A DNA stretch of 64,000 nucleotides from a virus. Its lineage: Duplodnaviria > Caudoviricetes. The translations under genes were made by a program, and so were the position numbers. Under the pieces are notes generated by a model. The model ran no database searches. It was given only the letters and a program-made list of their open reading frames with translations, and had not been told where the DNA came from. The stretch covers positions 91,464-155,463 of the IMG/VR virus record IMGVR_UViG_3300020577_009322, one strand, 5' to 3'. Below are positions 13,095-56,104 of this stretch, one piece after another (position 1 is the first letter of the stretch; every line of letters begins with the position of its first letter).

Positions 13095-13099
13095 CAGAT

Positions 13100-13183
13100 G
13101 GGTATGATGGTAAATGTGGTTAAATCAGGAGACTGTAAATCTCTCGTCATTAGACTGTTGGAGTTCGATTCTGTACATACCCA
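13100..13183 (+). tRNA. tRNA-Tyr(GTA)
   Basis: ggaga-CTGTAAA-tctct; long variable arm. Confidence 0.85.
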
Positions 13184-13200
13184 CAATTATTTTTTTATTT

Positions 13201-27448: not shown

Positions 27449-30278
27449 TTATCAAGCTGTATCTCAGTATAGACCATATTCTTTAAGAGTTAACGATATC
27501 TTCAAAGCCAATTCAGCATTAGATGCTTATTGGGATGATGGGGCACGTTCTGTTAAGAAAGCTTATGAGAATGTTGTCGACTTGAAATTACATACGACTG
27601 AAAATAGACAGATAAGAGATCAATTTGTACAAGATGCACAAAAACAGATAACTAAAATATCTTCTATGAATTTAGCTGATCCATCTGTACAGAGACAGGG
27701 AATTGATATATTTAAGCCACTATATAAAGACCAGAATATAGTTGGTGAAGATTATGTTATAAGAAACGGAGAACAAGAGTTAGCTACAGGAGAAACATTT
27801 CGTACAAAGGATGGTGGTAAAAACTATAATCCTTTATCTATAGAAAATATTAAGTTTGAACAGAATTTACTATCTATTGATCCAGCTAAAGGTGGATTGA
27901 ATAAAAGAGATGGATGGAAAGCTATAGTTAATAATCAATCTACCTATACTCCATATACAGATATAAGTAAAGAATACAAGCAAATTCAGGATGCTGTTAA
28001 AGCAGAAGAGATCAAAAATGCATCCATTTCTGGAGATCAATGGTATATTGAGGAAGTTAGTAAGAAAGGTGTAAGTAAGGATAGAATGCAAGCCGCTATA
28101 GAAGAAATGGGAAGTCCTCAGTTAAAAGAACAAATGAGAGTAGAGGGAAGAAATATTTATTATAAGAAGTTATCTGCAGATCCTACGCAAGTTGATGGAT
28201 ATTTCCAGTCTCTTGCAGGTTCTTATTATGATACAAAAATTAATGAATTAAAAAATAGAAAAGCAGAGATAGAATATAATAATTATATGACTCCTGATAA
28301 ACCTGAATATGCAGCTAAGAAGCAATCATATAAGAATACATCAGAGGAGTTAGATAAAACTATTACTTCTCTTGAAACTAAATATAAGCCTGATTATATA
28401 AGAGAATTTAATGGATTATCCAATTTGGATAATCTATCATCTAATATCTCAAAAATAGAGCAGTTATGGCAACAGTCATCTATTGATAATTTATCAGGCA
28501 AGTTAGCTTATGAAACCTCTTCTAGAGAAATAAAAGCTAATCCTGCCAAAATAGCTAAGGAAAATCTGAATCTAGGAATGCAACGTTTACAGGAGACTAA
28601 ACGTCATAATTTGTCTACTGAACAAATTGATCTTCTTAAGAATATAAATAAATCTACAGGTAGTGCTGGAGGTGGAAATAGTAATTTCCTTTTACCTGGA
28701 GGAAATGGAACAGCAAATGTTCCCGTAAATTATAATACACCTTCTCAAAAAGATCTTGATACCTTTAGAAAGGTAGCAGATACAATGCAGAAAGAGTTCG
28801 ATAATAATGATGAACCAATAAGAGAGGCTGCTGTAACAAATATTGTTGGTAATCAAGCCTGGAATTCTATTCAGGATCCGGCAAATGTTGGTAAGAAAAC
28901 AAGTGATGTTTTAGTGGATACTGAAATACAGAAAGCTGCTGAATTCTTAAAAGCGTATAGTGACAAGCATACAGCAGAAGAATTACAAGTTGGTAGAATT
29001 CCTATACTTAATAAACCTATTTTAGTACCAAAAGGATTATCAATTGATCAATATAAAGAGTATTTAGGAAATTTGTCAGCAGCCGGATTTAAAAATATAG
29101 TAGGAAAGCTAGTAAAATCTGATGTAGATTTAACCAGTGATTTAATTGGAAAACTAGCTACAGAAAATGGAGTAGACAAAGCAGCTAATTTTAGAAACAC
29201 ATATAACAATACTTTAAGAAATCAAATGAATTTATCTGCTAATATAACAAATCAAGTAGCGGAAAAATTAGGAGATTATGCATCACTTTTTCGTAATAAC
29301 GGTAAAGTAAACTTAACAGATAGTGAAATTGCAGATGCATACAATAAAGGCATTCAATCTAATAAATTAATTGCTCATTATAATGTAGTAATAACACACC
29401 CTTCAAGTAACCCAAATACAACGGAAGAAAAATATATTCCTCTTACAGAAAAAGAATTTAATGATTATAAGTCTGGAAAAGTAAAAAATTATGACGGGTA
29501 CGTAGTTAGTCGTGTACCATCATTAAGTGAATTTTCTTCTACCATAAGAAGAAAAACGGATCCAGTATATTATCGTCTTAAGATGGAAAATAATCAAGCT
29601 GGAAATCAATATACTTATAATGATAAGAATAATGAAGAGAAGATTGCTGCATTAAATCGTTTTGAGACAATTTCTCCAGATGTACAAGGAACAGATGCTA
29701 CTCCTGATAATAAGGAAATATTTAGTTTTTTAAAGAGTAATGCAAAACATTTGATTGCACAAGAAATAAAGACACCTGGTCCGGATGAAACTTTACCATC
29801 AGTTAAATTTACTATGGAAAACTTTGGAACAGGTAAAGAACAAGAGGAATTAAAGAAAATGGTTGATAAAGTTAACTCTACATGGTTCAGAACTACCGAT
29901 GTTCCTGCAGATTATTTCTCTAAAGGAAACTCTTCGGGATCTGTAAGATACAGGGGAGCCTATGTTTCTTATATTCCATCTAAAATGCCAAATGGTCAAG
30001 AGGCAGGAATATTTATAAGAAATTTATCTACTAGTCCTGCTACTATTGAACCTGATATCCAGGTTAAGAATTTATATGTACTGAGAGATATTAATAAAGG
30101 TCCAGTAGAAGAAAATAAACTATACATAACAAAAGATCTAGTAAAGAAACAATTTCAAGATAGTCATAATAATACTCCTATAGAAGTATATATGCAAAAT
30201 GATGTTGATGAAGTTAATCGTTTTTTATCAGCATTAGTAACCAACATTGAGCAGAAAAATAAAGTAAAAGAAAAGTAA
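27417..30278 (+). CDS. Virion cargo (ejected) protein
   Basis: 953 aa helical protein directly upstream of giant cargo genes. Confidence 0.6.
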   Translation: MPATSPFQGNDYQAVSQYRPYSLRVNDIFKANSALDAYWDDGARSVKKAYENVVDLKLHTTENRQIRDQFVQDAQKQITKISSMNLADPSVQRQGIDIFKPLYKDQNIVGEDYVIRNGEQELATGETFRTKDGGKNYNPLSIENIKFEQNLLSIDPAKGGLNKRDGWKAIVNNQSTYTPYTDISKEYKQIQDAVKAEEIKNASISGDQWYIEEVSKKGVSKDRMQAAIEEMGSPQLKEQMRVEGRNIYYKKLSADPTQVDGYFQSLAGSYYDTKINELKNRKAEIEYNNYMTPDKPEYAAKKQSYKNTSEELDKTITSLETKYKPDYIREFNGLSNLDNLSSNISKIEQLWQQSSIDNLSGKLAYETSSREIKANPAKIAKENLNLGMQRLQETKRHNLSTEQIDLLKNINKSTGSAGGGNSNFLLPGGNGTANVPVNYNTPSQKDLDTFRKVADTMQKEFDNNDEPIREAAVTNIVGNQAWNSIQDPANVGKKTSDVLVDTEIQKAAEFLKAYSDKHTAEELQVGRIPILNKPILVPKGLSIDQYKEYLGNLSAAGFKNIVGKLVKSDVDLTSDLIGKLATENGVDKAANFRNTYNNTLRNQMNLSANITNQVAEKLGDYASLFRNNGKVNLTDSEIADAYNKGIQSNKLIAHYNVVITHPSSNPNTTEEKYIPLTEKEFNDYKSGKVKNYDGYVVSRVPSLSEFSSTIRRKTDPVYYRLKMENNQAGNQYTYNDKNNEEKIAALNRFETISPDVQGTDATPDNKEIFSFLKSNAKHLIAQEIKTPGPDETLPSVKFTMENFGTGKEQEELKKMVDKVNSTWFRTTDVPADYFSKGNSSGSVRYRGAYVSYIPSKMPNGQEAGIFIRNLSTSPATIEPDIQVKNLYVLRDINKGPVEENKLYITKDLVKKQFQDSHNNTPIEVYMQNDVDEVNRFLSALVTNIEQKNKVKEK

Positions 30279-33200
30279 TGCCAGATTTAATAAATCCCAC
30301 ATTTGATACTAAGATAGATCAGCCAGATATTCCAGTAGTTGTTGATACTCAATGGAATAGACCAACTGTTCAAATACCAGATTCTTTAAAACAATCTCAA
30401 GCGTTGTTTCAGGAACCAGGTGATGTATCTTTAATGGACTTTACTAACAAGGTAAATAATCACTTAACTCCAGATCAAGTAAAGAGAAATAATGAAGATG
30501 CTAATATTATGGCATCTCTTACACCTAAAATTACTACTCCATCAAAAGAAGTCCCTTTCAGATATTTCTCATCTATTGATGCGATGCGCTATAAGCAGAA
30601 TAGTAGATTATGGAATACTCAAGGATACAATCCTGAAGTTCCATCTGATATTACAGATGCTATCTATGATTTTCATGAGACTAAATGGGAGTCTATTAAG
30701 AATATTTTACCAAAATTATGGTCAACAACTGCCTTTTCCTTTAAGAATTATTTTGCAGAATATGCAGATACAGCTCGTGCTATTTCACAATTAGATGCTA
30801 ATTTATTACATGATAGTCAGCGTTTTGAAGATTATCAAAACGACCAAAATGAATTAGAAGCATTAAATCCTGACTATAAAACTGATAAAGAAGTTAAATG
30901 GTGGCAGTTAGGTAGAGGGGATTATTGGGAACAATCGGCTTCATCTTTAGGATTTACTATTGGTACAATAGCTGCAGCGGTAACAGAAAATGTTGGTATT
31001 ACACTGGCAACAGGAGGATTAGGAGAATTTGGTGAATTATATAATTCACCTCGTAAAATATATAAAGCAATTTCAGATTATTATTCTTTAAAAAGAGCCT
31101 ATTCTTTAGTAAAAGGTGCCCTAGGTGCTAAGTCACTTGTTGGTAGATTAGGTAATGCAGCTAATATTTGGAGATTAACAAATGGTGCACTATCAGAAGC
31201 TGCTTTTGAAGGAGCAACAATTGCTTATGATTATTTACAATCATATAAACAGAATTACATAGATAAATATGGCAGAAATCCTTCTGAAGAAGAAATGAAG
31301 GGTGCAAAAATGGCAGCTAATTCTATGGCTAATGCCACCATCTTATTTGAGACCCCTTTCTTAATGGCTAGTAATGCTGTTCAGTTTGGTAACTTAATTG
31401 CTCCAAAGACAATTGGAAAATTAGCTAAATTGGGAGAAAAGGGAGCCTTTAAGTTAGGTACCGAGTTGATAGATGGATTACCAAAGACAATAGTACAATC
31501 AACAGAAAATCAAGCAAAAAATATATTCACTAAATATGGAGAGAAAGGATTACATGCTATAAAAAATGCTACATGGGAAGGTACTGAAGAAAGTTATCAA
31601 GCATTGGTAACTACTTCCACTCAAAAGTATTATGGAGATAAGTATAAGAATGGAGATGATGGAGATATAATGAAAGCTCTCGGAGCAGGATATGATTATA
31701 TTACTTCTAATCAAGGTCTAATAGAGTTTTCTGCGGGATTTGCTACAGGAGAAATTTTTCATTTAGCTGGAGTACCTCTACATATATTTGCTAAACCTTC
31801 AGTAAGAACTGCTGAAGAACAAGCTACTTATAAGAAAGCTAATCCAGATGCTACAGATATTGATGCTAAATACAAAACTAATGTATTAAACAATGTCTTT
31901 GGATATGGAATGGATAAGATAAATAAAGAGAGAGAAAAAGCTAATCTGGAAGAAATAGCTAAAAAGCTCAATTCAGTTGATCTTGAGAAATTCTTAAAAG
32001 AAGAAGGATTTTTATCATTAGTAAAAGATAAACAAACTCAGTTTGCTTTAGCAAAGTATTTACAAAATAATGATCAATTTAATATGCAGAATGCTCAAAA
32101 TCTGCAGTTAAATCGTTACTTATATGCTGGTTTGACTACAGGTAAAATTGATTTACAAATAGATAAATTAAAACAATTTGCTAGTCAAGATTTTCATACC
32201 TTGAGTGAATTTTTTGGGTTAGATGAAAATGATTATTCTACTCAGGAAGATAAAGATAAATTTATTAACGGATTTAGAGCATGGACGGCTGAATTAGGTA
32301 ATAAAACTAAAGAATTTGAAAGAATTTTTAATCAACAAAAGGATTCATTTTCTTCTATTATATCTGCAGCAGCTAAGGAACATGATAAAAATTTATCAAT
32401 CAAGAATAGTTTTCTGACCGATCTACAAAGAAAATATTCAGAAGATAATATAGAAAATCTAAGTAAGAAAATATCATCTGATGAGATCACTCAGTTAAAT
32501 GATATGAATGTAGCTACTGTCGCATCACATTTTCGTTTCTATGCTGTAAATGAAGCTGTAAAAGCCTCTGTATTTTCTCAAGTTGGTATGGATGATGCTG
32601 CTAATCGTGCTAAAGATATTGTTAGACAATTAGTTAAGAATGATTCTACTCATACCTTCTATCATGAATTAGGAAGTTTCTTTGATATTGGTTATAGAGA
32701 AAATCGCCTTAAGGACTTACAAAGTAAAGTAGATTTAGCCAAATCATCTAATGATGAAAATTTATCATTATATGAACAGCAGTTAAATTCTTTTAAAAGT
32801 ATGACCAAGAAATTAGATGGTCAATTTAATAGAGCTTCTAACTATAATATAGATAGTGTTGCTAATAGTATTCTTGATTATTTACACAATACTCAAAGAG
32901 AATTAAACAACTTAGATAATTCTACTTCATTAGAGGATCGTATAGCCAATCAAGAAGTGGGACAATATTCTCTTCTTAAAGAATTTGTTAAGTTACAAAA
33001 ATCTCATCAAGAGAATCTTAACCTATATAATTATTTATCTTCTCAGGCTAATAGAGAAGATTATACCCGTTTCCAGTCAAGAAAATTAACAGACTTCTTC
33101 TCTAAAGCTGTAGAGTTAACTGATAATGAGGAAAAAGATAAGCAAGTTAAAGAAGCTGTTGATAATAATGGAGTTCAGGAAGCTGAAGTAGTGAAATCTT

Positions 33201-34213
33201 ATGTTAAAAAGACTGAAGAACCTATTCAAGTTTCTAACACTTTATCAGAAAATACAAAAGTAGAAAGTAAACCTAAATATAATATTGATAATGTTAATGC
33301 ATTAATATTAGCTATTATACAAAAAAACTTTCAGAAGATTTCTGATTTAAAATCAGAGATAGCAAAAATTCCAAAAGATTTAGTAGAAGAAAGAGTTAAT
33401 TTACTTATCTCAAGAGTTGCTACATATAAGAAACCAGAGAATGCTAATAAAATAAAAGAAGAATTTAGAAGGATTTTTGGTGAAGATTTCTTACAGAATT
33501 CTCCTACTCCAAAAGTAGAGGAAAAACCAGCGGTTAAACAACCATCTACTAATCCTTTAGATAAGATTAAGATAACCTTAACTCCACAAGAAGATAAGAG
33601 AGCTGATATAGAAAGAAGAAGACAAGAAGAACTAAATCAAAAAACTGATGCAGGGTATTCAATTATTGCATTGGACTATTTATTTACAGGAGGTAGAGAT
33701 GTAATACAATCTACTGATTATTTATTACAGGCTTTAGTTGGAGGATTTACAAGTGCAGCTAAAGAAATAAATGATATTAGAAATAAATATGCTGATAAGT
33801 TAGGTAATATTAAAGATGATATTAACTCTGATGTTTATAATCAAATGATGTTAGAAATTAGGGATGTTATAAATAAAAATTATAATGACCCTAAAGCAAA
33901 TGAAATTTTTGATAAAATATTAAAAAATGCAACAGGATTTACAACTAGAGAAGGAAATCAAACAAGTATTGAATTAGATAAATTAAATGAACAAAATGAT
34001 TCTAAAATCAATGCTAAATATTATGCAGAATTAGCTGCTTTAGGAGCTACTACAACCACTTCAATTAAACCCGGAGTAGAAGAATTATTCGATGAAAACC
34101 CTGAATTAGCTAATGCTGTATATTCAAAAATATTAACTAATTCTGGACTTTCTTCTGAAAATTTATTATCTTTGCTATTGAAAGATAACTTAATAGAAAA
34201 ACAATGTCCATAA
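30278..34213 (+). CDS. Giant cargo/RNAP polyprotein fragment 1 (Gly/Ala-rich membrane-inserting N-terminal region)
   Basis: SASSLGFTIGTIAAAV, EGTEESYQ; ends ...LLLKDNLIEKQCP*. Confidence 0.7.
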   Translation: MPDLINPTFDTKIDQPDIPVVVDTQWNRPTVQIPDSLKQSQALFQEPGDVSLMDFTNKVNNHLTPDQVKRNNEDANIMASLTPKITTPSKEVPFRYFSSIDAMRYKQNSRLWNTQGYNPEVPSDITDAIYDFHETKWESIKNILPKLWSTTAFSFKNYFAEYADTARAISQLDANLLHDSQRFEDYQNDQNELEALNPDYKTDKEVKWWQLGRGDYWEQSASSLGFTIGTIAAAVTENVGITLATGGLGEFGELYNSPRKIYKAISDYYSLKRAYSLVKGALGAKSLVGRLGNAANIWRLTNGALSEAAFEGATIAYDYLQSYKQNYIDKYGRNPSEEEMKGAKMAANSMANATILFETPFLMASNAVQFGNLIAPKTIGKLAKLGEKGAFKLGTELIDGLPKTIVQSTENQAKNIFTKYGEKGLHAIKNATWEGTEESYQALVTTSTQKYYGDKYKNGDDGDIMKALGAGYDYITSNQGLIEFSAGFATGEIFHLAGVPLHIFAKPSVRTAEEQATYKKANPDATDIDAKYKTNVLNNVFGYGMDKINKEREKANLEEIAKKLNSVDLEKFLKEEGFLSLVKDKQTQFALAKYLQNNDQFNMQNAQNLQLNRYLYAGLTTGKIDLQIDKLKQFASQDFHTLSEFFGLDENDYSTQEDKDKFINGFRAWTAELGNKTKEFERIFNQQKDSFSSIISAAAKEHDKNLSIKNSFLTDLQRKYSEDNIENLSKKISSDEITQLNDMNVATVASHFRFYAVNEAVKASVFSQVGMDDAANRAKDIVRQLVKNDSTHTFYHELGSFFDIGYRENRLKDLQSKVDLAKSSNDENLSLYEQQLNSFKSMTKKLDGQFNRASNYNIDSVANSILDYLHNTQRELNNLDNSTSLEDRIANQEVGQYSLLKEFVKLQKSHQENLNLYNYLSSQANREDYTRFQSRKLTDFFSKAVELTDNEEKDKQVKEAVDNNGVQEAEVVKSYVKKTEEPIQVSNTLSENTKVESKPKYNIDNVNALILAIIQKNFQKISDLKSEIAKIPKDLVEERVNLLISRVATYKKPENANKIKEEFRRIFGEDFLQNSPTPKVEEKPAVKQPSTNPLDKIKITLTPQEDKRADIERRRQEELNQKTDAGYSIIALDYLFTGGRDVIQSTDYLLQALVGGFTSAAKEINDIRNKYADKLGNIKDDINSDVYNQMMLEIRDVINKNYNDPKANEIFDKILKNATGFTTREGNQTSIELDKLNEQNDSKINAKYYAELAALGATTTTSIKPGVEELFDENPELANAVYSKILTNSGLSSENLLSLLLKDNLIEKQCP
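34003..34043 (+). repeat. 41-bp direct repeat, copy 1 (KINAKYxAELAAL)
   Basis: taaaatcaatgctaaatattatgcagaattagctgctttag; 39/41 identical to 38948-38988. Confidence 0.9.
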
Positions 34214-34818
34214 GCGGTATATATAAAATAACAAATATAATAACTCAAGATAGTTATGTTGGTTCTGCTGTAAATTTAAATAGCAGAAAAAGAACTCATT
34301 TTGCCAACATGAATTTGTCAAAACATCCTAATAAACATCTACAAGCATCTTGTAATAAGTACGGTATTGATAATTTTCAGTTTGAAATTTTAGCTAATTG
34401 TCCTAAAGAATATTTATTAAAACTTGAACAGTTTTTTATAGATAGTTTAAAACCTACTTTCAATAAAAGAAAAGAAGTTAATAGTAATTTAGGAATGATA
34501 TTAACAGAAGAACATAAACAAAAGATTTCTGAAAGTAATACTAATAATCCTAAAAGAGTTGGTAGAAAGTTATCTGATGAACATAAAGAAAGTATTAGAA
34601 AATCTCACTTAGGTAAAAGTCTTTCGGAAGAAACCAAACAAAAAATATCTGAAAAGTTTAAAGGTGAAAATCATCCAATGGCTAAACTTAACCAAGAAAA
34701 AGCTAATGAAATTAGAACTTTATTTGGTAAAATGAAAATAAAAGAAATAGCTTCTAAATATAATATTTGTGTAGGAACAGTAGAAAAAATTAAAAGTAAT
34801 AAAATATGGGTTGCATAA
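34204..34818 (+). mobile_element. GIY-YIG homing endonuclease gene with NUMOD3 repeats, splitting the cargo gene
   Basis: SGIYKITN...YVGSA; EEHKQKISE, SEETKQKISE repeats; overlaps both flanking ORFs. Confidence 0.9.
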
Positions 34819-36881
34819 TAAAATATAAAAAACAATCAATACCAGAAGAACAATTTCTTCAATATCTTAATAAGCAAATTGCTATTAATAATTTATTTGA
34901 AACAAATGGTGATTTTGCTTCTAAAATTTATGAAGCTTTAGGGTTTAATAAACAAATAAATGAAATAGCAGATACTAAAAAAGTAGATGAATTTATTAAA
35001 AAATATAAAGATGCTTTACCAAATATTAAAGATGGTAAAACGTTAATATCTCATTTGCAAACTGTTTCTAATAGGAATACAGGAACAACTAAACAGTTTG
35101 CAGATTTAATAATTAAACTATCTAAATCAAATAAAGGATTAGAAAAATTATTAAATAATCCTAATTTATATGCTAAACCAAACAGTGTAGGAGATGAAGG
35201 AGCTTTTCATTGGTCATTGTTTAATAATTTATCTGTTAACAAAATTGTTTTAGAATTAGACCATTTTAAAACTAATACTTATGATGATGTTTTTTTACAT
35301 GAGTTAATTCATAATTTAACCACTCAATTTATTGTAAAAGATTCTGATTTATTTAATCAAAATTTTTATAATAAAGTAAAAGAACTATATTCTGTTTTTG
35401 ATAACCATCTTGAAGCTAACAAAAAAGTAAATGAACCTTTACTTAAATCTACAAAAGATGATGTTAAAAACCTTAAAAGGCTAAAAGAATATTTTGAATT
35501 CTTACCCTCAGATGCTATTCAGCAAGAATTATTGTTTGGTAAAATAGGTAGTCTATCTACCGTTAAAGATGTAAAACTTGATTATAAGTCATTAGAAAAT
35601 AAGTCTAAACAAGATGTTATAAAAGAATTAGAAAGATTATTATCTTTTAAAGAAAGTAGAATACAAGAAATAGAAAAAGGAGATAAAGATTACTATTATT
35701 TTAATTCTAAAACATTTAAACAAGAAAATGTTCTATCTGAATTTTTAGCAACTTTTATAAATGATGCTAACTTTAGGGAACAACTTAAAAACATAGACTA
35801 TAAAAACAATAAATCTATTTTTCAAGCTATTATTGATTTAATATCTGAATTTATAGGATTAACTAAAAATGATAGTTTGTATAATGAATTTGTTTTAAAT
35901 CTTACAAACTTTATTAATAATAATGATTATTCTACAATAGCTGAACAAACACAAAAAACAGCTTATCAAAATAGAATAAATTTACTTGAACAACAAAAAC
36001 AACAAGCTCAACAACTATATTCTCAATATCTACAACAAAATCCTAATGGTAGTATAGAACAGTTTAAAAGTTGGATTAGTAATAGAAACACTTTTGATAA
36101 AGAACTTGCTCAAAAAATACAAGATAAACTTCAAAGACTATATCCTGAAATTAAATTAAATATTACTAATAATCCTATTTGGGAAAAAGGTGATAATGTA
36201 TTTAATCAAGAAGAATATAACAATCAAGTTAATTATAGATTGAAAGCTACTGAAAAAGTATTAGATAATTTAGCTAAAATTAAACAATGGGAGTCTAATA
36301 AATCTATTGATAAAAATACTTTATGGAAAAAAATAGGGGAATTGGGTATTTCTAAACAACAATTAGAATTACTAAAAGAATCTGAAGGAAACACTATAGA
36401 AGAAAAGTTAACAAATTTTGTAGCTAATTATAGTTATACTGTAGAGATTAATACTGCTAAAGAAAATCTTAAAATACCTAAAGTTGATTATCCAAATGTT
36501 AATTCAATATTTATCAATGGAAAAGAATATAAAAAAATAGGAAAAAATAAATATACTTTAGATGGAAATACTATAAACTACGAAAGTCTTCCTGTTTCAG
36601 TTAAAGAATATTTAGATAATATTGAAGTTGAAGAACTTGTTGAGCCAATACTTACTCAACATTACTCTAATCTAACAGTTCCAGGAGGTACTAATTATAC
36701 AGAGAATGAAATAGCTACTCCTGGAATTACACCTTCTATTAAAGGTCATGCTCAATTTGCTACTGATAAAGGATTGATGTGGAGTAGAACAGATGAAAAA
36801 ATACAATATCAAGAACAAGACATTGATAACTTGTTGAAAATTATGGAAAATAGTAAAATTCTTCAAATAAAATGCTCTTAA
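34806..36881 (+). CDS. Polyprotein fragment 2 with zincin metallopeptidase domain
   Basis: HELIH...SEFLA; starts MGC, ends QIKCS*. Confidence 0.75.
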   Translation: MGCIIKYKKQSIPEEQFLQYLNKQIAINNLFETNGDFASKIYEALGFNKQINEIADTKKVDEFIKKYKDALPNIKDGKTLISHLQTVSNRNTGTTKQFADLIIKLSKSNKGLEKLLNNPNLYAKPNSVGDEGAFHWSLFNNLSVNKIVLELDHFKTNTYDDVFLHELIHNLTTQFIVKDSDLFNQNFYNKVKELYSVFDNHLEANKKVNEPLLKSTKDDVKNLKRLKEYFEFLPSDAIQQELLFGKIGSLSTVKDVKLDYKSLENKSKQDVIKELERLLSFKESRIQEIEKGDKDYYYFNSKTFKQENVLSEFLATFINDANFREQLKNIDYKNNKSIFQAIIDLISEFIGLTKNDSLYNEFVLNLTNFINNNDYSTIAEQTQKTAYQNRINLLEQQKQQAQQLYSQYLQQNPNGSIEQFKSWISNRNTFDKELAQKIQDKLQRLYPEIKLNITNNPIWEKGDNVFNQEEYNNQVNYRLKATEKVLDNLAKIKQWESNKSIDKNTLWKKIGELGISKQQLELLKESEGNTIEEKLTNFVANYSYTVEINTAKENLKIPKVDYPNVNSIFINGKEYKKIGKNKYTLDGNTINYESLPVSVKEYLDNIEVEELVEPILTQHYSNLTVPGGTNYTENEIATPGITPSIKGHAQFATDKGLMWSRTDEKIQYQEQDIDNLLKIMENSKILQIKCS

Positions 36882-36882
36882 A

Positions 36883-36914
36883 TTTGGTACATTCAGAATT
36901 TTGTTGTATATTTG
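36883..36914 (+). promoter_or_regulatory. Bacteroidota-type promoter of second GIY-YIG gene
   Basis: TTTG 36883-36886 and TATATTTG 36907-36914; ATG at 36920. Confidence 0.82.
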
Positions 36915-36919
36915 TAACT

Positions 36920-37657
36920 ATGGAGAAATCAGGAATATATCAAATAAGAAATAAAGTAAACGGAAAATCTTATATAGGAAGTTCTACAAGACTTAATAAA
37001 AGATGGAAAAGACATTTAACAGATTTAAAATGTAATGTTCATCATTCTTTAGCTTTACAAAGAGCTTTTCACAAATATGGTTATGATAACTTTGAATTTA
37101 TTATACTAGAAAATTGTGAAGAAAATTTACTCTTGGAAAGAGAGCAATATTATTTAGATAATTTAAAACCTGAATATAATATTTGTAGTATAGCAGGTAA
37201 TTGTTTAGGTATAAAACAATCTGAGGAAACAAAAGAAAAAAGAAAACTATCTAATTCTAAGTATTGGGATTCTGTAGGAAGAAAACATAAAGATAAAATT
37301 AAAGTTATTAGAGAACAAAACTTTTTAATTAAACAACAAAGAGAGCAAAGAAATATACAAATAGTAGAAGATTTAAAATCTGGTATTAGGCAAGATGTAA
37401 TTGCTGAAAAATATAATTTATCTCCTTCAGTAATAACTCAACTTAAAAAGAAACACAATGTTGTAACAAATATTATTTCTAAAGGTAGTAATAATGGATT
37501 TTCTAAACTTACAGAAGAACAAGTAAAAGAAATTAAGCATCTTTTAAAAGATAAAGTAAAGCAGCAAACTATTGCTGATAAATATAACGTAAAACTTAGG
37601 ACAATTAAGGCTATTCAATCTGGTCAAAATTGGAATCATATTAAAATAGAAGAATAA
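36920..37657 (+). mobile_element. GIY-YIG homing endonuclease gene splitting the cargo gene
   Basis: SGIYQIRN...YIGSS; SEETKEKRK; C-terminal HTHs; start reassigned from 36872 to 36920. Confidence 0.9.
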
Positions 37658-37658
37658 A

Positions 37659-40600
37659 ATGGCATGTAAATATATATTTAACGGTATTGAATATAAGGAT
37701 AAACAAACTTTTATAGAAGAGTTTGTAAAACCTAATTTTATAAATCAACCTAAAACTCTTAGGGTTCAAGAATACCAAAGTGATTATTTTCAAAAATTAA
37801 GAAATGATTTTACTTTTAATGGAGAAAAACATTTTATTATCATTGATTCAACTGGTAAGAAACATTATTATATAAATAAAGAAGGAAAAAAAGCTACTCC
37901 TGATAAATACGAAGTCTCTTCTAATGAATATAATAAAGCCTTTGATGCTTTTATAGATGCGGGTGGGGATAACCAATTTCTAGCATTATTACATAAAAAT
38001 GATAATTGGATTACTTTTGGAATTAAAGCTATTATTCAAAATGCAGCAAAGCAAGGTTTTTCTAAAATACTCTTCCCTACTGGTAATACTGCTAGTAAAG
38101 TTGAAGGTCATACTACTTTAGAAGAGTTTAAAAAACAGAAAGAAGATAGAATTAAAGAACTTGAAAATAAACTTAAAGAAATATCTACTGATGAATTTTT
38201 TAATAAAACTTATAAAATAGTTGATAATCAAATTCACAAAAAAGAATCAACTAAAGAATATCCTAATTTAGCATTTACTACAAAAGTTTATAGTGAAAAA
38301 GAAGCTAAAGAAGTGGCTTATGAGTTTATGAGTAAATCTTCTAAACAAGAAATAGCTCAACTTAAACAAGAACTTGAAAGAGTTGAAACAGAAGGATTTG
38401 CTGCATTAAAACCTATTTATAATTTCTATGAAAATACTGTATCTAATATTCTTAAAAAACAAGGATATAATACTAAAGTAGTTACTGATGAATATGGTAA
38501 TACTTGGAATGAGGTGAATATTAATCAAGTAAGAGATTTAGCAGAAGTTTTATTACAACGTAATGAAGCTAATCAAATAATAGGTCAAGCTAATATTAAA
38601 GCTATGACTGTGTTAATTGATGCTATTAATCAGAAACAAGATACTTTACCACATGAATATGCACATCATTATATAGCTTGGTTTAGAAATACACCTATTG
38701 TTCAAGAAGCTATTAAAAAATGGGGTAGTGAGGAAGCATTGGTACAATCTATAGGTGAACAAGTAATTAAACAAAAAGGAGAAGCTTATAATTGGTGGAA
38801 TAATTTTGTTAAGTGGGTAATGAATCAATTTAATTCTTTATCTAAATTACAAAAAGAAGAATTAACTCAAATACTTACCGATGCTTTTTTAACAAGACAA
38901 GATTTAGGTTCTAAACAAGATATAGAAGGATTTAAAACCTTTGTAGATAAAATCAATGCTAAATATGATGCAGAATTAGCTGCATTAGATAAGGAAGAAA
39001 AGAAACCAGTAGGAAAAGAGTTAACCAAGGAAGAAAAAAACTTTATTGATTCAATTAAAGGATTGGATACTAGTAAATTAGGAGTATTTAAAGTATTAGT
39101 AGATACCTTAAATGACCCAGATTCTACTATAGAAGATAAGCAACAGACAATAAAAGAATTGGCTGAACAATTAGCTGATAAAAGAAGTGAAGAGTCTCTT
39201 GGATCAGCTTTAGGACAAAAGGCTTCAGATGCTCTATATAACTATATAGATAAAAATAACATAAAGGTAGAGCCAGTTGTAATTAAAAGTGAACCTCAGG
39301 AATTTGATGAAACAATACCACCTACTACACCAAAAAGACAGGAGGTTGTAGGATATGGTCCTATTGGAGAAAATCTTATATCTATCTTAATTGATAAAGC
39401 CAGAGAGAGTGGTTTATTTACGTTTGATAGTACTAATCCAGAAGAAATAGATAAGATTGAAGATGATCATATGATATTAAAGACAGCTAGTGATCCACTA
39501 GCTCTAAGACACCATATGATCATGGAGAAGTTGGATAGTATTTTTGCTAAAGATACTACTGATAAAGATAACTTTAAAGTTAAATTAGAGTTTATTAATG
39601 ATAATAATAAGGATTGGTTTTATAAGAAAGATGATAGAAAGAGAAATGAAGAAGCTATTATTGCCGTAATAGTAGATAATGATGGAAATTATCATTATTT
39701 TGATAAGATGGGAAATCTAACTACAAAAGAGTTAGGTTCACCATTTGCTGTAGAATATAGGGATCTTTTCTATACTTCAGAGTACTTAACATCCTCTAGA
39801 AACAATCTGGGTGATAAGACTTTAACAACTATTACCCCTAATTATAAAGGAGATAAACATCCTCTTTCTAAGATTTATACATTAATAGGTAATAATATTC
39901 CAGTATATGGTTCTATAAAAGGAATTACAGCTGGAGTATTATCATCACTTAATGCAACTAATTCTTTTAACAATACAACGAAATCCTCCTATAAGACTCG
40001 TCCTTTACAAGAATTATTCGATAAAGGTGAGTTAGATGAACAATTAATATCAGTTAAAGTAGATAAGGGTTTCTATTTAGATTACTCACCGACTAGTGAT
40101 AATCAGATGATTAAAGTTGGTCGTCCTACCGTTATTGATTATAAAACAGGTTTATCTATTCCTCTTATTGGTAGAAAAGTAAAAGATTTAACGTTTAATG
40201 GTCAGAAGATAGATAAATCTTCTCAAATGTATGAGGTTATTGATTGGTTAGATAAAAAGGGAAAAATATCCTTAGATAGTCTACGTCCAGACAAAACTCG
40301 TATTATTGCTACACTTGATGATATAGATAATATTTATCATTTCTTAAGAGAGTTATTATATAGTAAATTATTCTATGTTTCTCAATCTTCACCAGATACT
40401 ATTGAAATAAAGAGAAATATGAATAAAGATAAATCTGCTGTATCTTTATGGGATGCAGAGATTAATTATGTAGATAAGAGAGGTCCACTTATTAGTATTC
40501 CATTTACATCAGCTATAGACGAAAGTGGTAATACTGTTGGTGGTAAAATGGATTATGAGGATTTTCTTAGAGAGAACTTTGAAACAGGTGCTATACAAGC

Positions 40601-43600
40601 TACTATATCAAGTAATGATAAACGTTTTACTAAATTAAATAAAAGAGTAATATTTGGGTTAGATGATAGTTATTCTGATATGTTAAATAAACTGGATAAT
40701 AAAACTATCAGAACAGAGGATATTAAAGTAGGTGATAGATTTTCTCCAAATAAAGACTTAAGTAGACAATATGAGGTTATAGAAGTAGATGAAGATCGTA
40801 TTACATTACATGATGAAGTAAATGATGAAGATAAATCTATTAACGCAAAGGATTTAGTTAAATCTTGGCAGAAAGTTGAAAAGATAGTTGAGCCAGAACC
40901 AATTGTTTATAATGATTCACAAAAAGCAACTATTAAGAAAATAAAGGAATTATCTGTTCCAAAGGAAAAATCTACATATAGAGTTACTACCTTAGCTAGA
41001 CCATCCCAGGTAAAGAAAACATCAGGTTCTTCTTCAACTGTTATGGGAAATGTTATTGATTATATTGCAAAGAATATTTTCTCAGGAAATAAAGTAACTG
41101 CAGAAGATGATATTAGCATGTTAGATCAAAATGGTAGCAAGATCACTGGAAAATTAGGAAGTTATTTCCTTGGAAAAACTAATCTAGAAGATACTATTTC
41201 TAAATTAGTTTCTATTAAAGAATCTCTGGAGAAAGAATATGCATTTGTATCAGGAGTTAGAGTAAGAGATGAAGAAACAAATACAGGTGGTGAAATTGAT
41301 TTGGTATTAATCAATAATAAAGGAGAAGCTATTATTGCTGATTTCAAAACCGCTGGTCAATTATTTGATGATGCTCATTTAGAGCAACATTATAATACAG
41401 GAGTTACTGATAAAGAATATTTTGCTACTCAGGCTTATCTTTATGGATTAATGCTAGAGAAGCAAACTGGTATTAAAGTTCTATCAGAAAAAATTGTTAT
41501 TGGATTACCTATAAGTTTTTCAGAAGGAAAAAATAATATCTATGAAAGCAAGATAAAGGAAATAAAAAAGAAGGATAATTATATAGTCAGTTTATCAGAT
41601 GCTAATATATCTGGTTACTATAAAGTTGATAATAAACCATTTACATCTGTTAAAAAAATTGTTGATAAATATAATGAAGTAATTAAACAAAATGCTATCA
41701 CTCCAGAAGAAGGGTTAGATGCATTAACTGGAAAGAAAAAGAGAGGAAAGCCTTTAGAAATGAACATTAAAGGTATAATGGGAATAACTGCTTCAAATGA
41801 AGCTTTACAGAGAGCTATTGATCATATGTCTTCGATGTTTGGAGAGGAATTTATTGTTACATTTTCTAATACTATGAATAAATTTAAGTATGGTGAATGG
41901 ACAACTAATGGAACTATTCTTTACAAAAATGCAATCATTGATACACCTTATCACGAAGGATGGCATCAATTTAGTCAGCTTTTTCTTACTCGTGCAGAAA
42001 AATTAAAGATGTATAAATCTTTAAGGGATCAGGCTATTTCGTATATAGATAGAGATGGAGAAAAAAGAAATACATCTGATCATTATGATCTGGAAATAGA
42101 AGAATTTTTAGCTGATGAATGGGTAAAGTATGTAAAATCACCATCATCTTATAAATTTCCTGGAAAATATAAAGGAATTCTAGGATTCTTTAGAGATCTA
42201 TGGAGATTAATAAAAAACTTCTTCTCCTCTACCCATTCACCAGAAATATTGTTTAAGGATTTATATAATGGTAATCTGACAAATTATACCAAGGATATTA
42301 ATAATGCTTTATGGGGTAATCTTACTTCATCTATTTTAGATAGTGAGGGTAATGAAATATTAAATCATGTTCGTACAAACTTATATATACAAACTACTTC
42401 TTATTTTATTGGAGAAGTATTGAGAGAAAATAATAAATCATTCTCTTGGTTAAGACAGAATAGTAAAAATGAGTATATAAAAGATAATATTTTTGATAAA
42501 TTTGTTGATTTACAGGCTGATAGATTATCTAAATTATCACAGGAATCAAATTTATTACATAAAGTTTTAACAGATCCAGATAGTGTTCTACAAAAAACTG
42601 TTAAGGAAAAGAATATTCCAGAACAGGAGGTTACCAGATATATTGCTCAAATACAAGAAATAGAAAATTTATTAGCTGATGAAAATAATGCCTTTAATAG
42701 GTTTTATGATTATTATCTAAAGAACTCTGATATCGATACCTTAAGAGAAGGTAATGATAGAGAAGAAATATTAGATCCTCTTGATACTGAAGAAATTAGA
42801 GAAATACTAGAAGAGGATGGAGAAACAGAAGCACAAGAATACGATGAAGATACACCTTATCAAAAAGGATATAATGAAGGACCTAATGAGAAAAATCCTT
42901 TTACAAAAGCTAGTAAGGAAGTACAGGATTTTCATAGAACTATGCCTATAGTAATAGGTTATGATGAAGATAATAATCCTACTTACTTGACAAATGAATT
43001 AGGAATTCCATTAACTTATGATTATGCTAGCATTTTTAATATGACCAAAAGTATATTATCCGGAAAAGATAATATAGAAGATATTATAGCAAAATTAAGT
43101 GATCCTTATGTAATTAAAGTATTCCCACAAGCTAGATATATTAAGGAAAAACTACAAGGGTACATAACAAACACTACTCCAGAAAACTTCTCATTTCTAC
43201 AGAGATATGTGAAGATCATGGGAATGCCGGAAGTTGATAATAAGAAACTAACTGTTAATGAGGATGCTTTTAAATATGAAGGTTTAGATAAAACCTTAGT
43301 GAAAGTTAGAAGTTTATCACGTACAGGAGAGATATCTGATATAAATCAATGGACATATCAATTCAAACGTCCATCTGACGAAAGAGAAGCTATTAAATTA
43401 GATGATACATTATCCCCATATGATATATTTTCTTCTAACAATATCCTGTTTAATGTAGAAGGTCAATTATGGCTTAATCCATTTGTAGATTATTCAGTGA
43501 TTAAAGCCAATATGACAAGTAAGAAATTCTTATCATTAATGGGAATAGAATTAAATGATACGTTTTGGGATAATCCTTATTCAACACCATTTGCTGATAA

Positions 43601-46600
43601 GGTTGTTAGTTATCTATTAAATGATTTAATAACATATAGAGAATACTTAGGATCTCTTTTACAGAGAGATAAGGGTAGTATGTCAGATGAAGAATTAGAT
43701 GAGTTTTTAGTTTCTAAGAATCCTAATCCGATGGCTGTTAAAGCTATTATTAAGGATTACTTTATTAATAATCCAATACAACAATTTCGTGAAAGAAAAA
43801 CGTATAAGTATGGTGATAAGATTTTGGAAACTTTTTCTATCCATACATTACTGGAAGATTTGAGTAGACAAAACTCACTTTATTCACTTAATGCACCTTC
43901 TCGTTCATTTACAGATGGTGGTGGAAAAACCAAATGGCCTTATTATGAGCCATCATTAATAACTCGTAGAACTCAGTTATTAAATAATATAGAAAATATA
44001 GGACAATTTGATAACAATTTAGAAATGTTATCACTTAATCCAAATAAGAATCCTTGGTTAAAGAATACCCTTTTCTATAAAGTAATGTTTGACAGTGAAG
44101 GTAATAGAGCATATGTTAGTAAGAAGAATAAAACAGGTATATATGATGATGAAAAGATCAGAATAGATTTAGCTGATCTCTCTTGTTATGAGAATATATC
44201 AGAAGGATTCTATACAAGAAAGCATCCAAAGGACCTATCTGCTGTAGATAAACTGTTTTTTGATACTGTAACATTAATAACTGATGGATGGTTAGAAGTG
44301 CCTCGTGCGGCCACTTCCTCTTCTATTTTTGCTATAAAATTGAATAGTTATAACTCTGTTCCAAAAGGAACTGGGGTAGTTTCCCAATATCTTCCAATCA
44401 ACGTAACATCCTCTGCAGTATTTAGTGGTGAACGTTTCCGTGGAATAATGAGGGGTTATTTAACAGGAGAACTGCAGAAATTAAAGTGGTATTTTGATAA
44501 TAATCCTAATGCAGAGGATCTATCTAAGAAGATGGATGATCCTTCCCGTAACTATTTTGCTCATAATCTTAATGTATTTAAAGATATATTATCTCCAGAA
44601 TTAGCTAAAACTCTAATTGAAGCTACTCAAAATATGTCTGGAAAGAATAAGTATGATAATATTAAACAATTAGTTGAAGATAATAAGGATGCCTTTCATA
44701 CTGATTTAAGTAAATACTTTGTTAAGTATGTTGCTGATTTAATGAATAGTAAGGAGAATGCTAATTATAATGCAATGTCTAATAAACAAAAGAAGGTATT
44801 AAGAAATATACTTTCTTTATATCAGGACAAATCTAAATCTCAAGATATACAGGATGTAGAAAGAGATAAACAAATTGCTAGTATTCTACAGGAAACTGGA
44901 GGAAAATCATCAGCCTTGTCTTCCAAAGAATCAGCTAAGGGTAAGATTGATTCAGCTATGAATATTGTAGCAGCTATTTTTGCTACAAACCAGTTTATCT
45001 TAAATATTGAATACCATAACTGGTATATGGGTGATAATTATCTCTTTGCTAATCCATTTAAAAGAGGTAACTTAACAACAAATACTGGAACAATGGCTAT
45101 TGTTTCTCCACATGTTAATGAGATATTAAACAGTCTGAAGGAGAATACAATGCATTATATTTATACAGGAAATAAAGAAGGAAGAGATTATCGTATATTG
45201 AATACTATTCCATTAAAAGAAATGGTTGTGGAAAGTAAATATTATGATATGATGATTAATGATGTTATTAATTGGGAAAAGATGTTTAATCCTTTTCTTA
45301 ATATTTCCAATAGAAAAATTGAGTTGGAGAAAGCATATTCTGCCTATAAAGATATAAAAGCTGCTGATGGTCAAGCCAAGATAGGATTGGATGCTTATCG
45401 TAGATTACGTATTATCTATGGTAATTGGGATAATTCTACTGACGAGAAGGAATATATGAGACAGTTAGCTATTTTAAGAGTTAGAAAAAATCTATATTTT
45501 GATGAGAAGAGAAATCCGCTTACTGCAGATGCTAGAGAAGAGGCTATTAAAAGAGATCAGAAATTAATAGATGCTGGACCCCATAGTAGTTTTAATCCTC
45601 AAAAATTTGCTTATACAGGTCCTGAAATAATAAAAGATAGTAAGGGAAACCCTATTAGTGCTCCAATGCGTACTAAGTTTGATAAGACATCTCTTCATCC
45701 ACTTTTACCAGAAGTATTAGCTGGATCAGGGTTAGGTGATGAACACTTGATGAATGAAATGGCTAAAAATGATATTGATTATGCTAAGTTTGAGAGTGCT
45801 TCTAAAGGTGTTAAACATAACGATATTGTAGATTTTTACACAGAAGAAGGAATGGCTCAACCTAATATCAAGTTAGAAGACCATACTCCTGAATTTTTAT
45901 TATCTTCATTTTTGAAGAATCAGTTATCTACAGATGGTATGTATACTGAAAATACATTTGGTAGTCAACAACGTGTTATGTTCTTTGATGTTATCTATCA
46001 AGCGGAAGTACAAGGAAATCCTGCATTGCTAAAGAAATTAACTAGCTTACAGAATAAATTTTTACAGTCTGTTAATAATATTATGGATTATCAACGTGCT
46101 CAATTCTTGAATAGATTTGGTATGGAAGAGAGTGGTAGTGGTCAATCTTATAAAGTTGATATTATTGATAATGAACGTTTTGCAGCTGCTGTTAATTCAT
46201 TAGCTAAAACTAATAATTTTCCTGATAACATGATGGAATACTTAAAGTTTGATCCATCTACATCAACATATACATTTGATCCTTCTCTTGTTTTTAATAG
46301 AAAAGTTCTTATTGATACTATTGGTGGATTATTAGATGGTGAATTAAGACGTCTTAAGACTAAAGGGGCTGCGGCCATTCAGGTTACTTCTGGAGGTAAT
46401 ACATATAATAGATTTACTAATCCAACAGAGGAACAAATTAAGAAATTCGGAACAAATGGATTACACTATTATCATATAAAAAATGATGACAAAGGAAATC
46501 CATTACGCATCTCAACAATGGGTGTTAAATTAACATTACAGGGAGATTTTAAGAATTTACTTAATTTAAATTGGAACGGAAAGCAAATTAAGACTTTAAA

Positions 46601-55901: not shown

Positions 55902-56104
55902 TGAATATCCAGTTGCCAACCGGAAATACTATATCTGTATCTGCTTATGAATATTACTTTATCCTAAAAGAAGATGAGGTGGATCTATTTTATCAATCCT
56001 GTATAGCAGATGATCTAGGAACTTATATTGATAACCCCTTCTCCAATAAAAGCTACTCCTCAAAGTTAGAAGTAGATGAAGAAGACATAAAAGACATATT
56101 ATAA
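55901..56104 (+). CDS. Small acidic hypothetical protein
   Basis: 67 aa, TAATG-coupled on both sides. Confidence 0.65.
   Translation: MNIQLPTGNTISVSAYEYYFILKEDEVDLFYQSCIADDLGTYIDNPFSNKSYSSKLEVDEEDIKDIL

Follow-up and report, generated by a model that had tools for sequence, protein, structure and literature searches.

The window, the whole stretch of 64,000 nucleotides analyzed here, belongs to the 155-kb genome of a distant crAss-like phage and carries the module for a virion-packaged cargo/RNA-polymerase protein, possibly of the "polyvalent" kind. This protein is encoded by four successive plus-strand open reading frames (ORFs), A-B-C-D, with one homing endonuclease gene (HEG) at the A/B break (junction 1) and another at the B/C break (junction 2):

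30278-34213, plus strand: ORF A, 1311 aa, first fragment of the cargo chain; single Cys, penultimate
34204-34818, plus strand: HEG1, predicted free-standing GIY-YIG + NUMOD3 + HTH homing endonuclease, 204 aa
34806-36881, plus strand: ORF B, 691 aa, second fragment; Cys at residue 3 and penultimate only
36920-37657, plus strand: HEG2, predicted free-standing GIY-YIG + HTH homing endonuclease, 245 aa from the likely start
37659-49385, plus strand: ORF C, 3908 aa; Cys at residue 3, residue 2176 (internal), and the last residue
49389-55901, plus strand: ORF D, 2170 aa, last fragment; sole Cys at residue 4, none at the C terminus

By tblastn, residues 2168-3908 of ORF C matched 41 crassvirus records at 22-26% identity (E values down to 5e-16), and its translation contains zincin-type H-E-x-x-H motifs and the D-F-D-x-D motif of RNA polymerases (RNAP). 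Cargo-type neighbors surround the module, as in the RNAP/cargo module of Crassvirales, and the neighbor gene of one homologue gave a crAss_CARG1 Pfam match. ORF C is remotely similar to crassvirus RNAP subunits and fits the Crassvirales virion RNAP/cargo module. Polyvalent proteins are reportedly giant mosaics of effector domains (ART-PolyVal, Zeta-toxin kinase, zincin peptidase). Homologues of the window chain carry PF18760, PF06414, PF12705, and NADAR; A, B, and C themselves gave no Pfam match above threshold, only H-E-x-x-H motifs.

An earlier note, made from the sequence alone, had read the locus as a virion protein split by GIY-YIG HEGs at the A/B and B/C breaks, and both the ORF calls and the Pfam and PHROG matches agree with that reading. 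The GIY-YIG domain (PF01541) was matched at E values of 7e-8 in HEG1 and 1e-13 in HEG2, DNA-binding modules at 3e-12 (NUMOD3) and 1e-5 (HTH_23), and PHROG homing-endonuclease families (314/7168) at 1e-23 to 1e-30. HEG1 shares 10 nt with A and 13 nt with B, and noncoding DNA at junction 2 is limited to about 38 nt plus 1 nt (the longest ORF of HEG2 starts at 36872 and encodes 261 aa). Both are predicted to be free-standing GIY-YIG homing endonuclease genes, in ORFs of their own outside any intron or intein. Same-site copies of HEG1 in the related loci L016, L018, and L002 are 81-91% identical to it, and a same-site copy of HEG2 in L007 is 87% identical.

Every ORF-ORF break of the chain bears a matched pair of terminal tags. 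At its C terminus the upstream protein has an amphipathic helix, then a short strand and a cysteine at position -1 to -2 (C-tag); the downstream protein opens with M-x(1-2)-C, after which come a hairpin and a helix (N-tag). These tags and the host motifs that flank them are located as follows:

34082-34123, plus strand: linker motif, copy 1, an intermodule motif closing the host part of A
34124-34210, plus strand: junction 1 C-tag, 29 aa; helix, short strand, Cys, one residue, stop
34806-34889, plus strand: junction 1 N-tag, 28 aa; M-G-C, hairpin, helix
34890-34931, plus strand: linker motif, copy 2, diverged; homology to uninterrupted proteins resumes here
36744-36800, plus strand: N-terminal half-motif of the split domain, the G-H-A-Q-F ... 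W-x-R-x-D-E block at the end of B
36801-36878, plus strand: junction 2 C-tag, 26 aa
37659-37751, plus strand: junction 2 N-tag, 31 aa; M-A-C, hairpin, helix
37752-37796, plus strand: C-terminal half-motif of the split domain, the K-T-x-R-V-Q-E-x-Q-S-D block in C
49326-49382, plus strand: C/D junction C-tag, HEG-free; Cys, then stop
49389-49454, plus strand: C/D junction N-tag (ORF D), M-A-Y-C..., 3 nt past the stop of C

The junction termini quoted in the earlier note were exact in the ORF translations, and the pairing of tags that it described at both HEG-bearing breaks was borne out: the tags are conserved, and the C-tag and N-tag designs recur. Within tag alignments the cysteine is invariant, with no conserved His or second Cys near it. 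Across the family it occupies positions 2-7 at the N terminus and, at the C terminus, anywhere between the final residue and nine from the end. Read from the sequences, the charges of the tags are not complementary in the way noted for the Aeh1 tails (see below). Tags and HEGs appear to be under purifying selection (pN/pS, 0.07-0.6, small counts), with values of 0.4-0.6 for the junction 1 C-tag, at few sites, and 0.07 for the junction 2 C-tag relative to L007. In an AF2 model of a 136-aa natural mini-fragment that bears both tags, which is of low confidence (pLDDT 50), the tags are the best-scored parts and are assigned as strand-strand-helix and helix-strand, a weak structural hint.

As the earlier note had stated, the fragments are otherwise poor in cysteine (A, 1; B, 2; C, 3; D, 1), the tag cysteines being nearly all there are among some 8000 residues. 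Together with an upstream 953-aa protein that has none, they contain 7 cysteines in 9033 aa, six of which lie at junction termini; the genome average is 1.3% Cys. Across 196 distinct large ORFs from 90 loci (382,538 aa), we counted 257 cysteines (0.067%), 171 of them within 8 residues of a terminus. At 99 distinct junctions between large Cys-poor ORFs, a cysteine was present on both sides in 72 cases, on neither in 21, and on one side in 6. First fragments lack an N-terminal Cys, and last fragments lack a C-terminal one. Unsplit giants are nearly Cys-free (two have no Cys at all), and the N4 ejection proteins, which are unsplit, have zero.

Comparison with uninterrupted homologues, a check proposed in the earlier note, was made by alignment at a third site, J3, and side by side at junctions 2 (J2) and 1 (J1), and came out in favor of the note: tags were absent from these homologues at all three. 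In related phages, the unit of C-tag, stop, HEG, start, and N-tag forms a clean insertion at three host positions placed by alignment, or five distinct sites when judged by their flanks, including the interior of a conserved domain. Site J3 is the cleanest case of joint insertion: seven uninterrupted sequences, window ORF C among them (approximately residues 115-135), are contiguous there, and L004, L128, and L141 carry exactly at this point a C-tag of 27-28 aa, a HEG, and an N-tag of 32-33 aa. Junctions 2 and 1 are concordant. About 25 homologues carry both conserved motifs that flank junction 2 on a single polypeptide, where a hypervariable loop, anywhere from 8 to about 170 aa long, lies between them; a domain is therefore truly split in the window, as the earlier note had suggested. 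That note had also described a duplicated host motif at junction 1. There are indeed two copies in the window and one in uninterrupted homologues, but the duplicated motif recurs at many module boundaries across the cargo protein family and is a pervasive intermodule linker. Since uninterrupted homologues lack the tags, C-tag, stop, HEG, start, and N-tag together behave as one inserted unit.

The association between this tag class and HEGs is close. Among GIY-YIG HEGs detected in the cargo module (90 loci), 19 of 20 are flanked by it, and a HEG was called directly upstream of 15 of its 21 distinct N-tags (17 of 21 by inspection). HEG-bearing, HEG-deleted, and uninterrupted alleles are all present among related genomes; in the deleted junction 1 allele of L184, approximately 50 nt of the HEG 5′ end is left between intact tags. 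In L097, L005, and L185, tags of this class occur without a HEG or without an adjacent C-tag partner, so that for some sites the reverse order, tags first and then HEG, may apply. HEGs of different sites are mutually only 30-40% identical; moves of the cassette would therefore be old, and phylogeny does not prove co-transfer of HEG and tags.

The same tag design also occurs without a HEG, at nearly all other breaks in the cargo protein family. In related contigs, 51 of 72 distinct tagged junctions are direct ORF-ORF junctions, and the gaps at HEG-free junctions fall in all three frames. Seven unsplit giants align to downstream fragments, in six cases with the alignment starting only near residue 14-45, and neither the tested HEG-free-type N-tag nor a Cys was found in the corresponding stretch of the seven. 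By this comparison HEG-free tags appear to be split-specific as well. The earlier proposal that the elements carry the tags is thus supported in part: the joint insertion with HEGs speaks for it, and the HEG-free tags show that the tags are neither an invention nor a monopoly of the HEGs.

Across Crassvirales, the RNAP cargo proteins of cultured phages likewise have ends tipped with Cys. In phi14:2, the only Cys of g067 is its last residue, g066 has Cys 3 and Cys 2179 of 2180, and g065 has Cys 3 only. Cys-tipped ends are likewise found in crAss001 gp47, gp50, and gp49 (gp47 being on the opposite strand), in p-crAssphage gp45/gp44, and at the cargo termini of cr108_1, cr271_1, and cr4_1. The rule that cysteines occur only at cut ends holds in the cultured and structurally studied phages phi14:2 and crAss001, and it yields a testable hypothesis for the ordering, cohesion, and ejection release of large cargo proteins in the most abundant gut phages.

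We favor, with moderate confidence, the reading that the tag pair is a portable docking clasp, probably locked by an interchain disulfide. Such a clasp would hold consecutive fragments head to tail and let the polyprotein be cut at the gene level with its function kept. A HEG lying between the two tags could bring the pair to a new site by a transposition-like event, and this co-transfer would render its own insertion harmless; the HEG might later be deleted, with the split and the tags remaining. The steps that involve the cysteines are less certain. The terminal pair may form an interchain disulfide in an oxidizing medium, stapling the cut hairpin turn; the cargo might exit the capsid as one linear thread and come apart in the reducing cytoplasm; and loss of all other cysteines would avert branched cross-links that could jam the tail channel. 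From the sequences we infer a disulfide or metal clasp, and two cysteines alone cannot tell a disulfide from a metal site or another thiol function.

Free-standing HEGs usually colonize harmless gaps between genes, and the tags could be host features of natively separate cargo genes, with HEGs settling in the gaps and never moving tags. This would suit the 51 tagged junctions without an intervening ORF and the window's own C/D junction, an order-wide pattern that includes phages without HEGs at these places, and HEG lineages that are site-specific and old. However, tags are missing from many uninterrupted homologues at J3 and J2, neither site is ever split without a HEG in our sample, the link of the tag class to HEGs is strong (15-17 of its 21 distinct N-tags adjoin one), and a clean in-frame gain of some 60 tag codons plus a HEG would be hard to achieve in two independent steps. 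We regard this explanation as unlikely. A somewhat fainter prospect is that the tags do dock and the terminal Cys serves otherwise, as a shared metal site, an anchor to some other component of the virion, or a redox sensor that governs release. A lone Cys at each terminus, lacking any conserved His or further Cys in its vicinity, makes a poor metal site, although the invariance of the Cys in tag alignments and its varying distance from the chain end across the family would agree with such roles, as would the building of phage particles in the reducing cytoplasm, which counts against a disulfide. The strict upstream-downstream pairing of cysteines (72 both versus 6 single) points to a partner-to-partner role, and their absence from the outer ends of first and last fragments also speaks against these alternatives.

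Inteins have a nucleophile as first residue, a T-x-x-H block, and a terminal H-N followed by Cys, Ser, or Thr, and span about 130 aa or more. The window tags are 26-33 aa each, contain neither H-N nor T-x-x-H, and place the Cys at the HEG-proximal end, opposite to an intein, and no Pfam intein match was found on A, B, or C. It is thus highly improbable that the fragments are rejoined, and the tags removed, by a hidden group I intron or by a split intein of minimal or atypical form, even though the terminal Cys recalls intein chemistry and the fragment-HEG-fragment order resembles the reported "fractured genes" with split inteins (PMC2677866). Tags stay as ORF termini after HEG deletion, the gaps at HEG-free junctions respect no frame, and a permissive search of 30-42 kb of the window gave no Rfam match at E values up to 1. 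We therefore rejected a group I intron (no catalytic RNA core, 0-38 nt of noncoding DNA) and an intein or split intein (short tags, Cys at the wrong ends, no splicing blocks), in accord with the earlier note, which had seen no room for the former and no motifs of the latter.

In favor of the clasp reading, disulfides exist between crassvirus virion proteins, and cargo must partly unfold to exit (PMC10172136). The fullest version of the clasp model, in which crassvirus cargo/RNAP proteins are stapled head to tail by single disulfides, ejected as a thread, and released by reduction, and in which HEG-carried "cut-and-staple" tags leave a lasting scar boundary, is put forward only tentatively. If true, a cut-and-staple module lets HEGs split even a folded domain harmlessly, and the scar outlives loss of the endonuclease as a new gene boundary. 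Selfish endonucleases would then be shown to be able to fragment giant genes and leave permanent boundaries in them. The tag pair could also become a small tool for split-protein assembly.

The closest known system is NrdA of Aeromonas phage Aeh1, an essential gene split by the free-standing HNH endonuclease gene mobE (Crona et al., Nucleic Acids Res 2011, PMC3045599). Its C- and N-terminal tails are unique: uninterrupted homologues do not have them, they originated with the insertion, and assembly requires them. Crona et al. explicitly set this solution apart from RNA splicing, protein splicing, and DNA rearrangement and predicted that it would prove general (PMC3045599). The third route besides RNA and protein splicing that the earlier note had inferred was thus already proposed and biochemically tested for Aeh1 NrdA/mobE (PMC3045599), a split that the note itself had named as precedent. 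Here too a HEG splits a gene, and both halves bear terminal extensions that uninterrupted homologues lack. In Aeh1, however, a single gene is split at a single site, and its tails, which are of opposite charge, lack recognizable relatives, whereas the window tag pair recurs at three aligned sites (five by flanks) with diverse GIY-YIG HEGs, and crassvirus tags have one Cys per cut end, occur without a HEG, and are common to a virus order. Aeh1 tails were tested biochemically, and the window tags are known from sequence. If the clasp reading is true, the single Aeh1 case of endonuclease-derived tails becomes a recurrent, recognizable module of defined design. The mobA-associated split of T4 topoisomerase gp39/gp60 also has tail-like extensions (discussed in PMC3045599), with no conserved portable tag pair, Cys tips, or multisite recurrence. 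Fractured genes reportedly place a free-standing HEG between split-intein halves (Dassa et al. 2009, PMC2677866) and share with our locus the gene order and the extra sequence at both cut ends; the window tags differ in being far too short, lacking intein blocks, having a misplaced Cys, and being kept in the mature ORFs.

Crassvirus RNAP/cargo proteins exist as individual polypeptides in some phages and as fusions in others (bioRxiv 10.1101/2020.03.07.982082; PMC10172136), and proteolytic processing of fused forms has been proposed (phi14:2, bioRxiv 10.1101/2020.03.07.982082; crAss001, PMC10172136). We found no mention of terminal cysteines or tags on cargo proteins in the texts of these two reports. 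The window shares with phi14:2 gp65-gp67 and crAss001 gp47/gp49/gp50 the same gene module and the D-F-D-x-D and zincin motifs, and differs in its larger number of fragments and in the merely distant relationship of its phage. A direct repeat was also present in the window's module:

34003-34043, plus strand: direct repeat, 41 bp; second copy at 38948-38988, 95%

Its two copies, which encode a second recurrent linker peptide of this cargo protein family, enclose the end of A, HEG1, B, HEG2, and the initial 430 aa of C.

The window forms the final 64 kb of one contig of 155,463 bp (31.6% GC), and the junction region belongs to a run of virion genes that share the + strand. Four consecutive ORFs (A to D), pieces of one chain, follow a 953-aa protein, and homing endonuclease genes (HEGs) occupy the A/B break (junction 1) and the B/C break (junction 2).

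ORF calls of the junction region (window positions)
27417-30278, + strand, 953-aa protein
30278-34213, + strand, ORF A, 1311 aa
34204-34818, + strand, HEG1, GIY-YIG homing endonuclease with a DNA-binding module
34806-36881, + strand, ORF B, 691 aa
36872 (longest ORF; likely start 36920) to 37657, + strand, HEG2, GIY-YIG homing endonuclease with a DNA-binding module
37659-49385, + strand, ORF C, 3908 aa
49389-55901, + strand, ORF D, 2170 aa

The termini of A, B and C quoted in the earlier note were exact. Its statement that the junctions leave no room for a group I core was also borne out: HEG1 overlaps both A and B, and the noncoding DNA at junction 2 amounts to only ~38 nt plus 1 nt. In agreement with its rejection of splicing elements, no Rfam family matched within 30-42 kb, even at E = 1, and Pfam detected no intein domain in A, B or C. 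PHROGs and Pfam searches with A, B, C and D were otherwise uninformative, ORF D had no match in a sequence search of the PDB, ORF B had none among GenBank phages by tblastn, and blastn of the junction region returned distant similarity to T4-type HEGs only. A scan of the region for promoters and terminators gave results at chance level. Elsewhere in the virion gene region, 24 tRNA genes cluster in three blocks at 8513-13184 (+ strand).

The C-terminal 1,741 residues of C gave remote tblastn matches to 41 crassvirus records (22 to 26% identity, E down to 5e-16), including annotated RNA polymerase (RNAP) subunits of p-crAssphage, and translated C contains D-F-D-x-D and H-E-x-x-H motifs. Relatives of B are giant mosaic proteins (1250 to 3400 aa) with varying combinations of ART-PolyVal, Zeta-toxin/AAA_33, PD-(D/E)XK, NADAR, or DUF7831 domains, and a neighboring gene at one homologous locus weakly matches crAss_CARG1. 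Given the RNAP matches of C, the mosaic domains and this neighbor, sequence comparison identifies A-B-C-D as a distant crAss-like phage's cargo/virion-RNAP protein, putatively of the "polyvalent" kind. Module boundaries across this family repeatedly carry two short peptide motifs: one is the motif seen duplicated at junction 1, and the other is encoded by a 41-bp direct repeat at 34003 and 38948.

Cys makes up 1.3% of the genome's proteins on average. Across the 953-aa protein and A to D, only 7 Cys were found in 9033 residues, 6 of them at the three junctions. To this we added a survey of 80 IMG/VR loci, fetched via the conserved zincin module of C, plus other loci. It covered 382,538 aa in 196 distinct large ORFs poor in Cys, with 257 Cys (0.067%); 171 of these are no more than 8 residues from a terminus. 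Consecutive large ORFs meet at 99 distinct junctions. Both ends carry a Cys in 72 of them, one end alone in 6, and neither in 21; the Cys-free junctions include those between separate cargo genes, such as the 953-aa protein and A. The N-terminal Cys is missing from first fragments and the C-terminal one from last fragments, and two unsplit giants (4895 and >5601 aa) contain no Cys. The same arrangement was found in cultured and reference crassviruses.

Cys positions in cargo proteins of two cultured phages
phi14:2 g067: sole Cys is the last residue
phi14:2 g066 (the crystallized RNAP): Cys 3 and 2179 of 2180
phi14:2 g065: Cys 3 only
crAss001 gp47: Cys 2339 of 2341
crAss001 gp50: Cys 5, 1334 and 2404 of 2412
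crAss001 gp49: Cys 5 only

The terminal pattern recurs in p-crAssphage gp45/gp44, cr108_1, cr271_1, and cr4_1. In the control, coliphage N4, the ejected proteins are unsplit, and gp50, gp51, and gp52 are devoid of Cys. On the basis of the survey, the references and this control, general Cys depletion fits the ejected proteins as a class, and the terminal Cys is a specific, retained feature of split points. An origin of the pattern at the nucleotide level or by read-through is excluded, since crAss001 gp47 lies on the strand opposite to gp50 and gp49 and the gaps between ORFs vary from -14 to +38 nt, in all frames. In the N4 record (L186, EF056009, 34523-47523), the virion RNAP (3500 aa), gp51, gp52 and the major coat protein are all free of Cys. 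The annotated cargo ORFs of cr4_1 (L182, NC_055893) contain 7 to 38 in-frame stops under table 11, consistent with stop codon recoding, and keep the terminal Cys pattern.

Each upstream piece ends in a C-tag (helix, short strand, Cys), and each downstream piece begins with an N-tag (M-x-C, hairpin, helix). The clearest test of whether the tags were inserted with the HEGs is a third site, J3, which is contiguous in seven sequences, including ORF C of the window. At exactly this position, three related loci (L004, L128, and L141) carry a 27- to 28-aa C-tag, a stop, a GIY-YIG HEG, a start, and a 32- to 33-aa N-tag, after which the host sequence resumes in register; alignment with uninterrupted homologs, as the earlier note proposed, therefore favors tags and HEG entering together as one unit. 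Junction 2 falls between two conserved motifs, correctly proposed to be halves of one domain: they are contiguous in ~25 homologs, spaced by a hypervariable loop of 8 to ~170 aa. The loops inspected have no Cys and no likeness to a C-tag; a few hold a hairpin-helix stretch like an N-tag. Six related loci (L004, L005, L007, L130, L135, and L183) are split at junction 2, each time with a HEG. At junction 1, five uninterrupted homologs run from a single linker motif directly into the B module, and the window reads linker motif, C-tag, HEG1, N-tag, second motif copy. The reported duplication is thus real, in a motif that marks module boundaries family-wide. Two more sites (L123/L126 and L150) combine a HEG with the same tag class.

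The 90 loci yielded 20 GIY-YIG HEGs in the module, 19 of them flanked by this class, and the N-tag profile found 21 distinct instances, with a HEG directly upstream in 15 by automatic call and 17 by inspection. Comparisons of close relatives indicate purifying selection on the tags (pN/pS 0.07 to 0.6, few sites) and on the HEGs (0.19 to 0.35); values for host segments of the window versus L007 were discarded as out of register from indels. No fused tag-tag segments were found within large ORFs. One region of L004 (14976-17101) has two GIY-YIG HEGs 413 nt apart with a 136-aa host mini-fragment between them, which bears an N-tag and a C-tag and Cys at residues 4 and 135 only. In L017 (3358-5995), a near copy of HEG1 precedes the junction 1 N-tag and follows an unrelated, Cys-containing 545-aa protein, which may be a rearranged context.

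Tags also occur without endonucleases. At the HEG-free C/D junction of the window, paired tags flank a gap of 3 nt. Direct junctions account for 51 of the 72 distinct tagged ones, and their tags form further conserved, cognate classes. Seven unsplit giants align to downstream fragments, six of them only from about residue 14 to 45, and none has an N-tag or Cys before the shared module; by this comparison, the HEG-free tags are split-specific as well. The junction 1 allele of L184 retains both tags around only ~50 nt of the HEG 5' end, the rest apparently lost by deletion between short similar sequences. The split and its tags thus persist once the HEG is gone, and a junction lacking a HEG can be the scar of such a loss. 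The HEG-associated class occurs without a HEG in L097, at what looks like a native junction, and the N-terminus of phi14:2 g066 resembles it. HEGs are 30 to 40% identical between different sites and 39 to 73% within site J2, so any cassette moves are old. The tags were not invented by endonucleases, and the proposal that they belong to the HEG elements is favored by the apparent joint insertion but not by the direct junctions or L184. Overall, the earlier observation is confirmed and its interpretation partly supported.

Upstream of some N-tagged fragments (L185:1967-4001 and L005:1-1440) lies a gene whose product has no Cys at its C-terminus, in one case with a faint PG_binding_1 match; as with crAss001 gp47, encoded on the other strand, tag partners need not adjoin. 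In three proteins (P0030, P0036, and P0038) the HEG-associated C-tag is internal, followed without a stop by 65 to 290 more residues; the P0030 tail ends in a small conserved C-terminal domain common to ORF ends in L005, L150, and L185.

A predicted tags-only complex at junction 2 (40 + 40 residues, 12-row alignments) scored 0.17 against a mark of 0.32, which counts neither for nor against an interaction. AF2 of the uninterrupted L101 module (666 aa, 10-row alignment; mean pLDDT 52) was too poor to place the break in the fold, and its drawing of the two flanking motifs as adjacent strands was not relied on. The double-tagged mini-fragment (pLDDT 50) gave a secondary-structure assignment taken as a hint only. 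A marginal hairpin-helix match of the N-tag profile to a SET-domain segment in the PDB (E = 0.002) was judged chance or motif likeness.

The terminal peptides are paired, conserved and split-specific, each bearing a single Cys where the chain is cut; they appear to have been inserted jointly with HEGs and were kept after HEG loss. We infer that the tag pair docks consecutive fragments, which would make the split harmless, and that a HEG between the tags could move both to another location by a transposition-like event. The earlier note offered such rejoining of fragments as a third route besides RNA and protein splicing; endonuclease-derived tails as such an alternative are already published for Aeh1 NrdA, with the docking logic demonstrated biochemically and a transposition-like origin proposed (PMC3045599). 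Unlike the Aeh1 tails, the crAss-like tags form a recognizable, conserved and putatively portable pair with Cys tips, recur at many sites, and have the same design as the native junctions across an entire virus order.

Less certain is that the two terminal Cys form an interchain disulfide. This reading is supported by the presence of one Cys at each end, where a conserved His or a further Cys is missing, its varying distance from the chain end, the purging of all other Cys, and the inter-subunit disulfides of crAss001 virions, whose cargo has to unfold in part on its way through the tail (PMC10172136). Such a bond would keep the chain linear and be reduced upon entry into the cytoplasm, and the possible disulfide-stapled cargo thread is directly testable in cultured phages. 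We found no mention of terminal Cys or cargo-protein disulfides in the crAss001 structure paper or the phi14:2 RNAP preprint, and a literature search on terminal cysteine in Crassvirales returned nothing; the pattern may still have been reported.

Small Cys-rich proteins (4 to 24 Cys each) are encoded in the virion region at 4711-8171 and 56104-56874, and for some neighbors (6591/6607) Cys closes one protein and opens the next; this recalls the junctions less strongly and involves proteins with no Cys shortage. Thioredoxin genes lie near replication genes in p-crAssphage (L177) and cr108_1 (L180); in cr108_1 the gene adjoins DNA polymerase I, which makes a polymerase accessory role more likely than a tie to the cargo cysteines.
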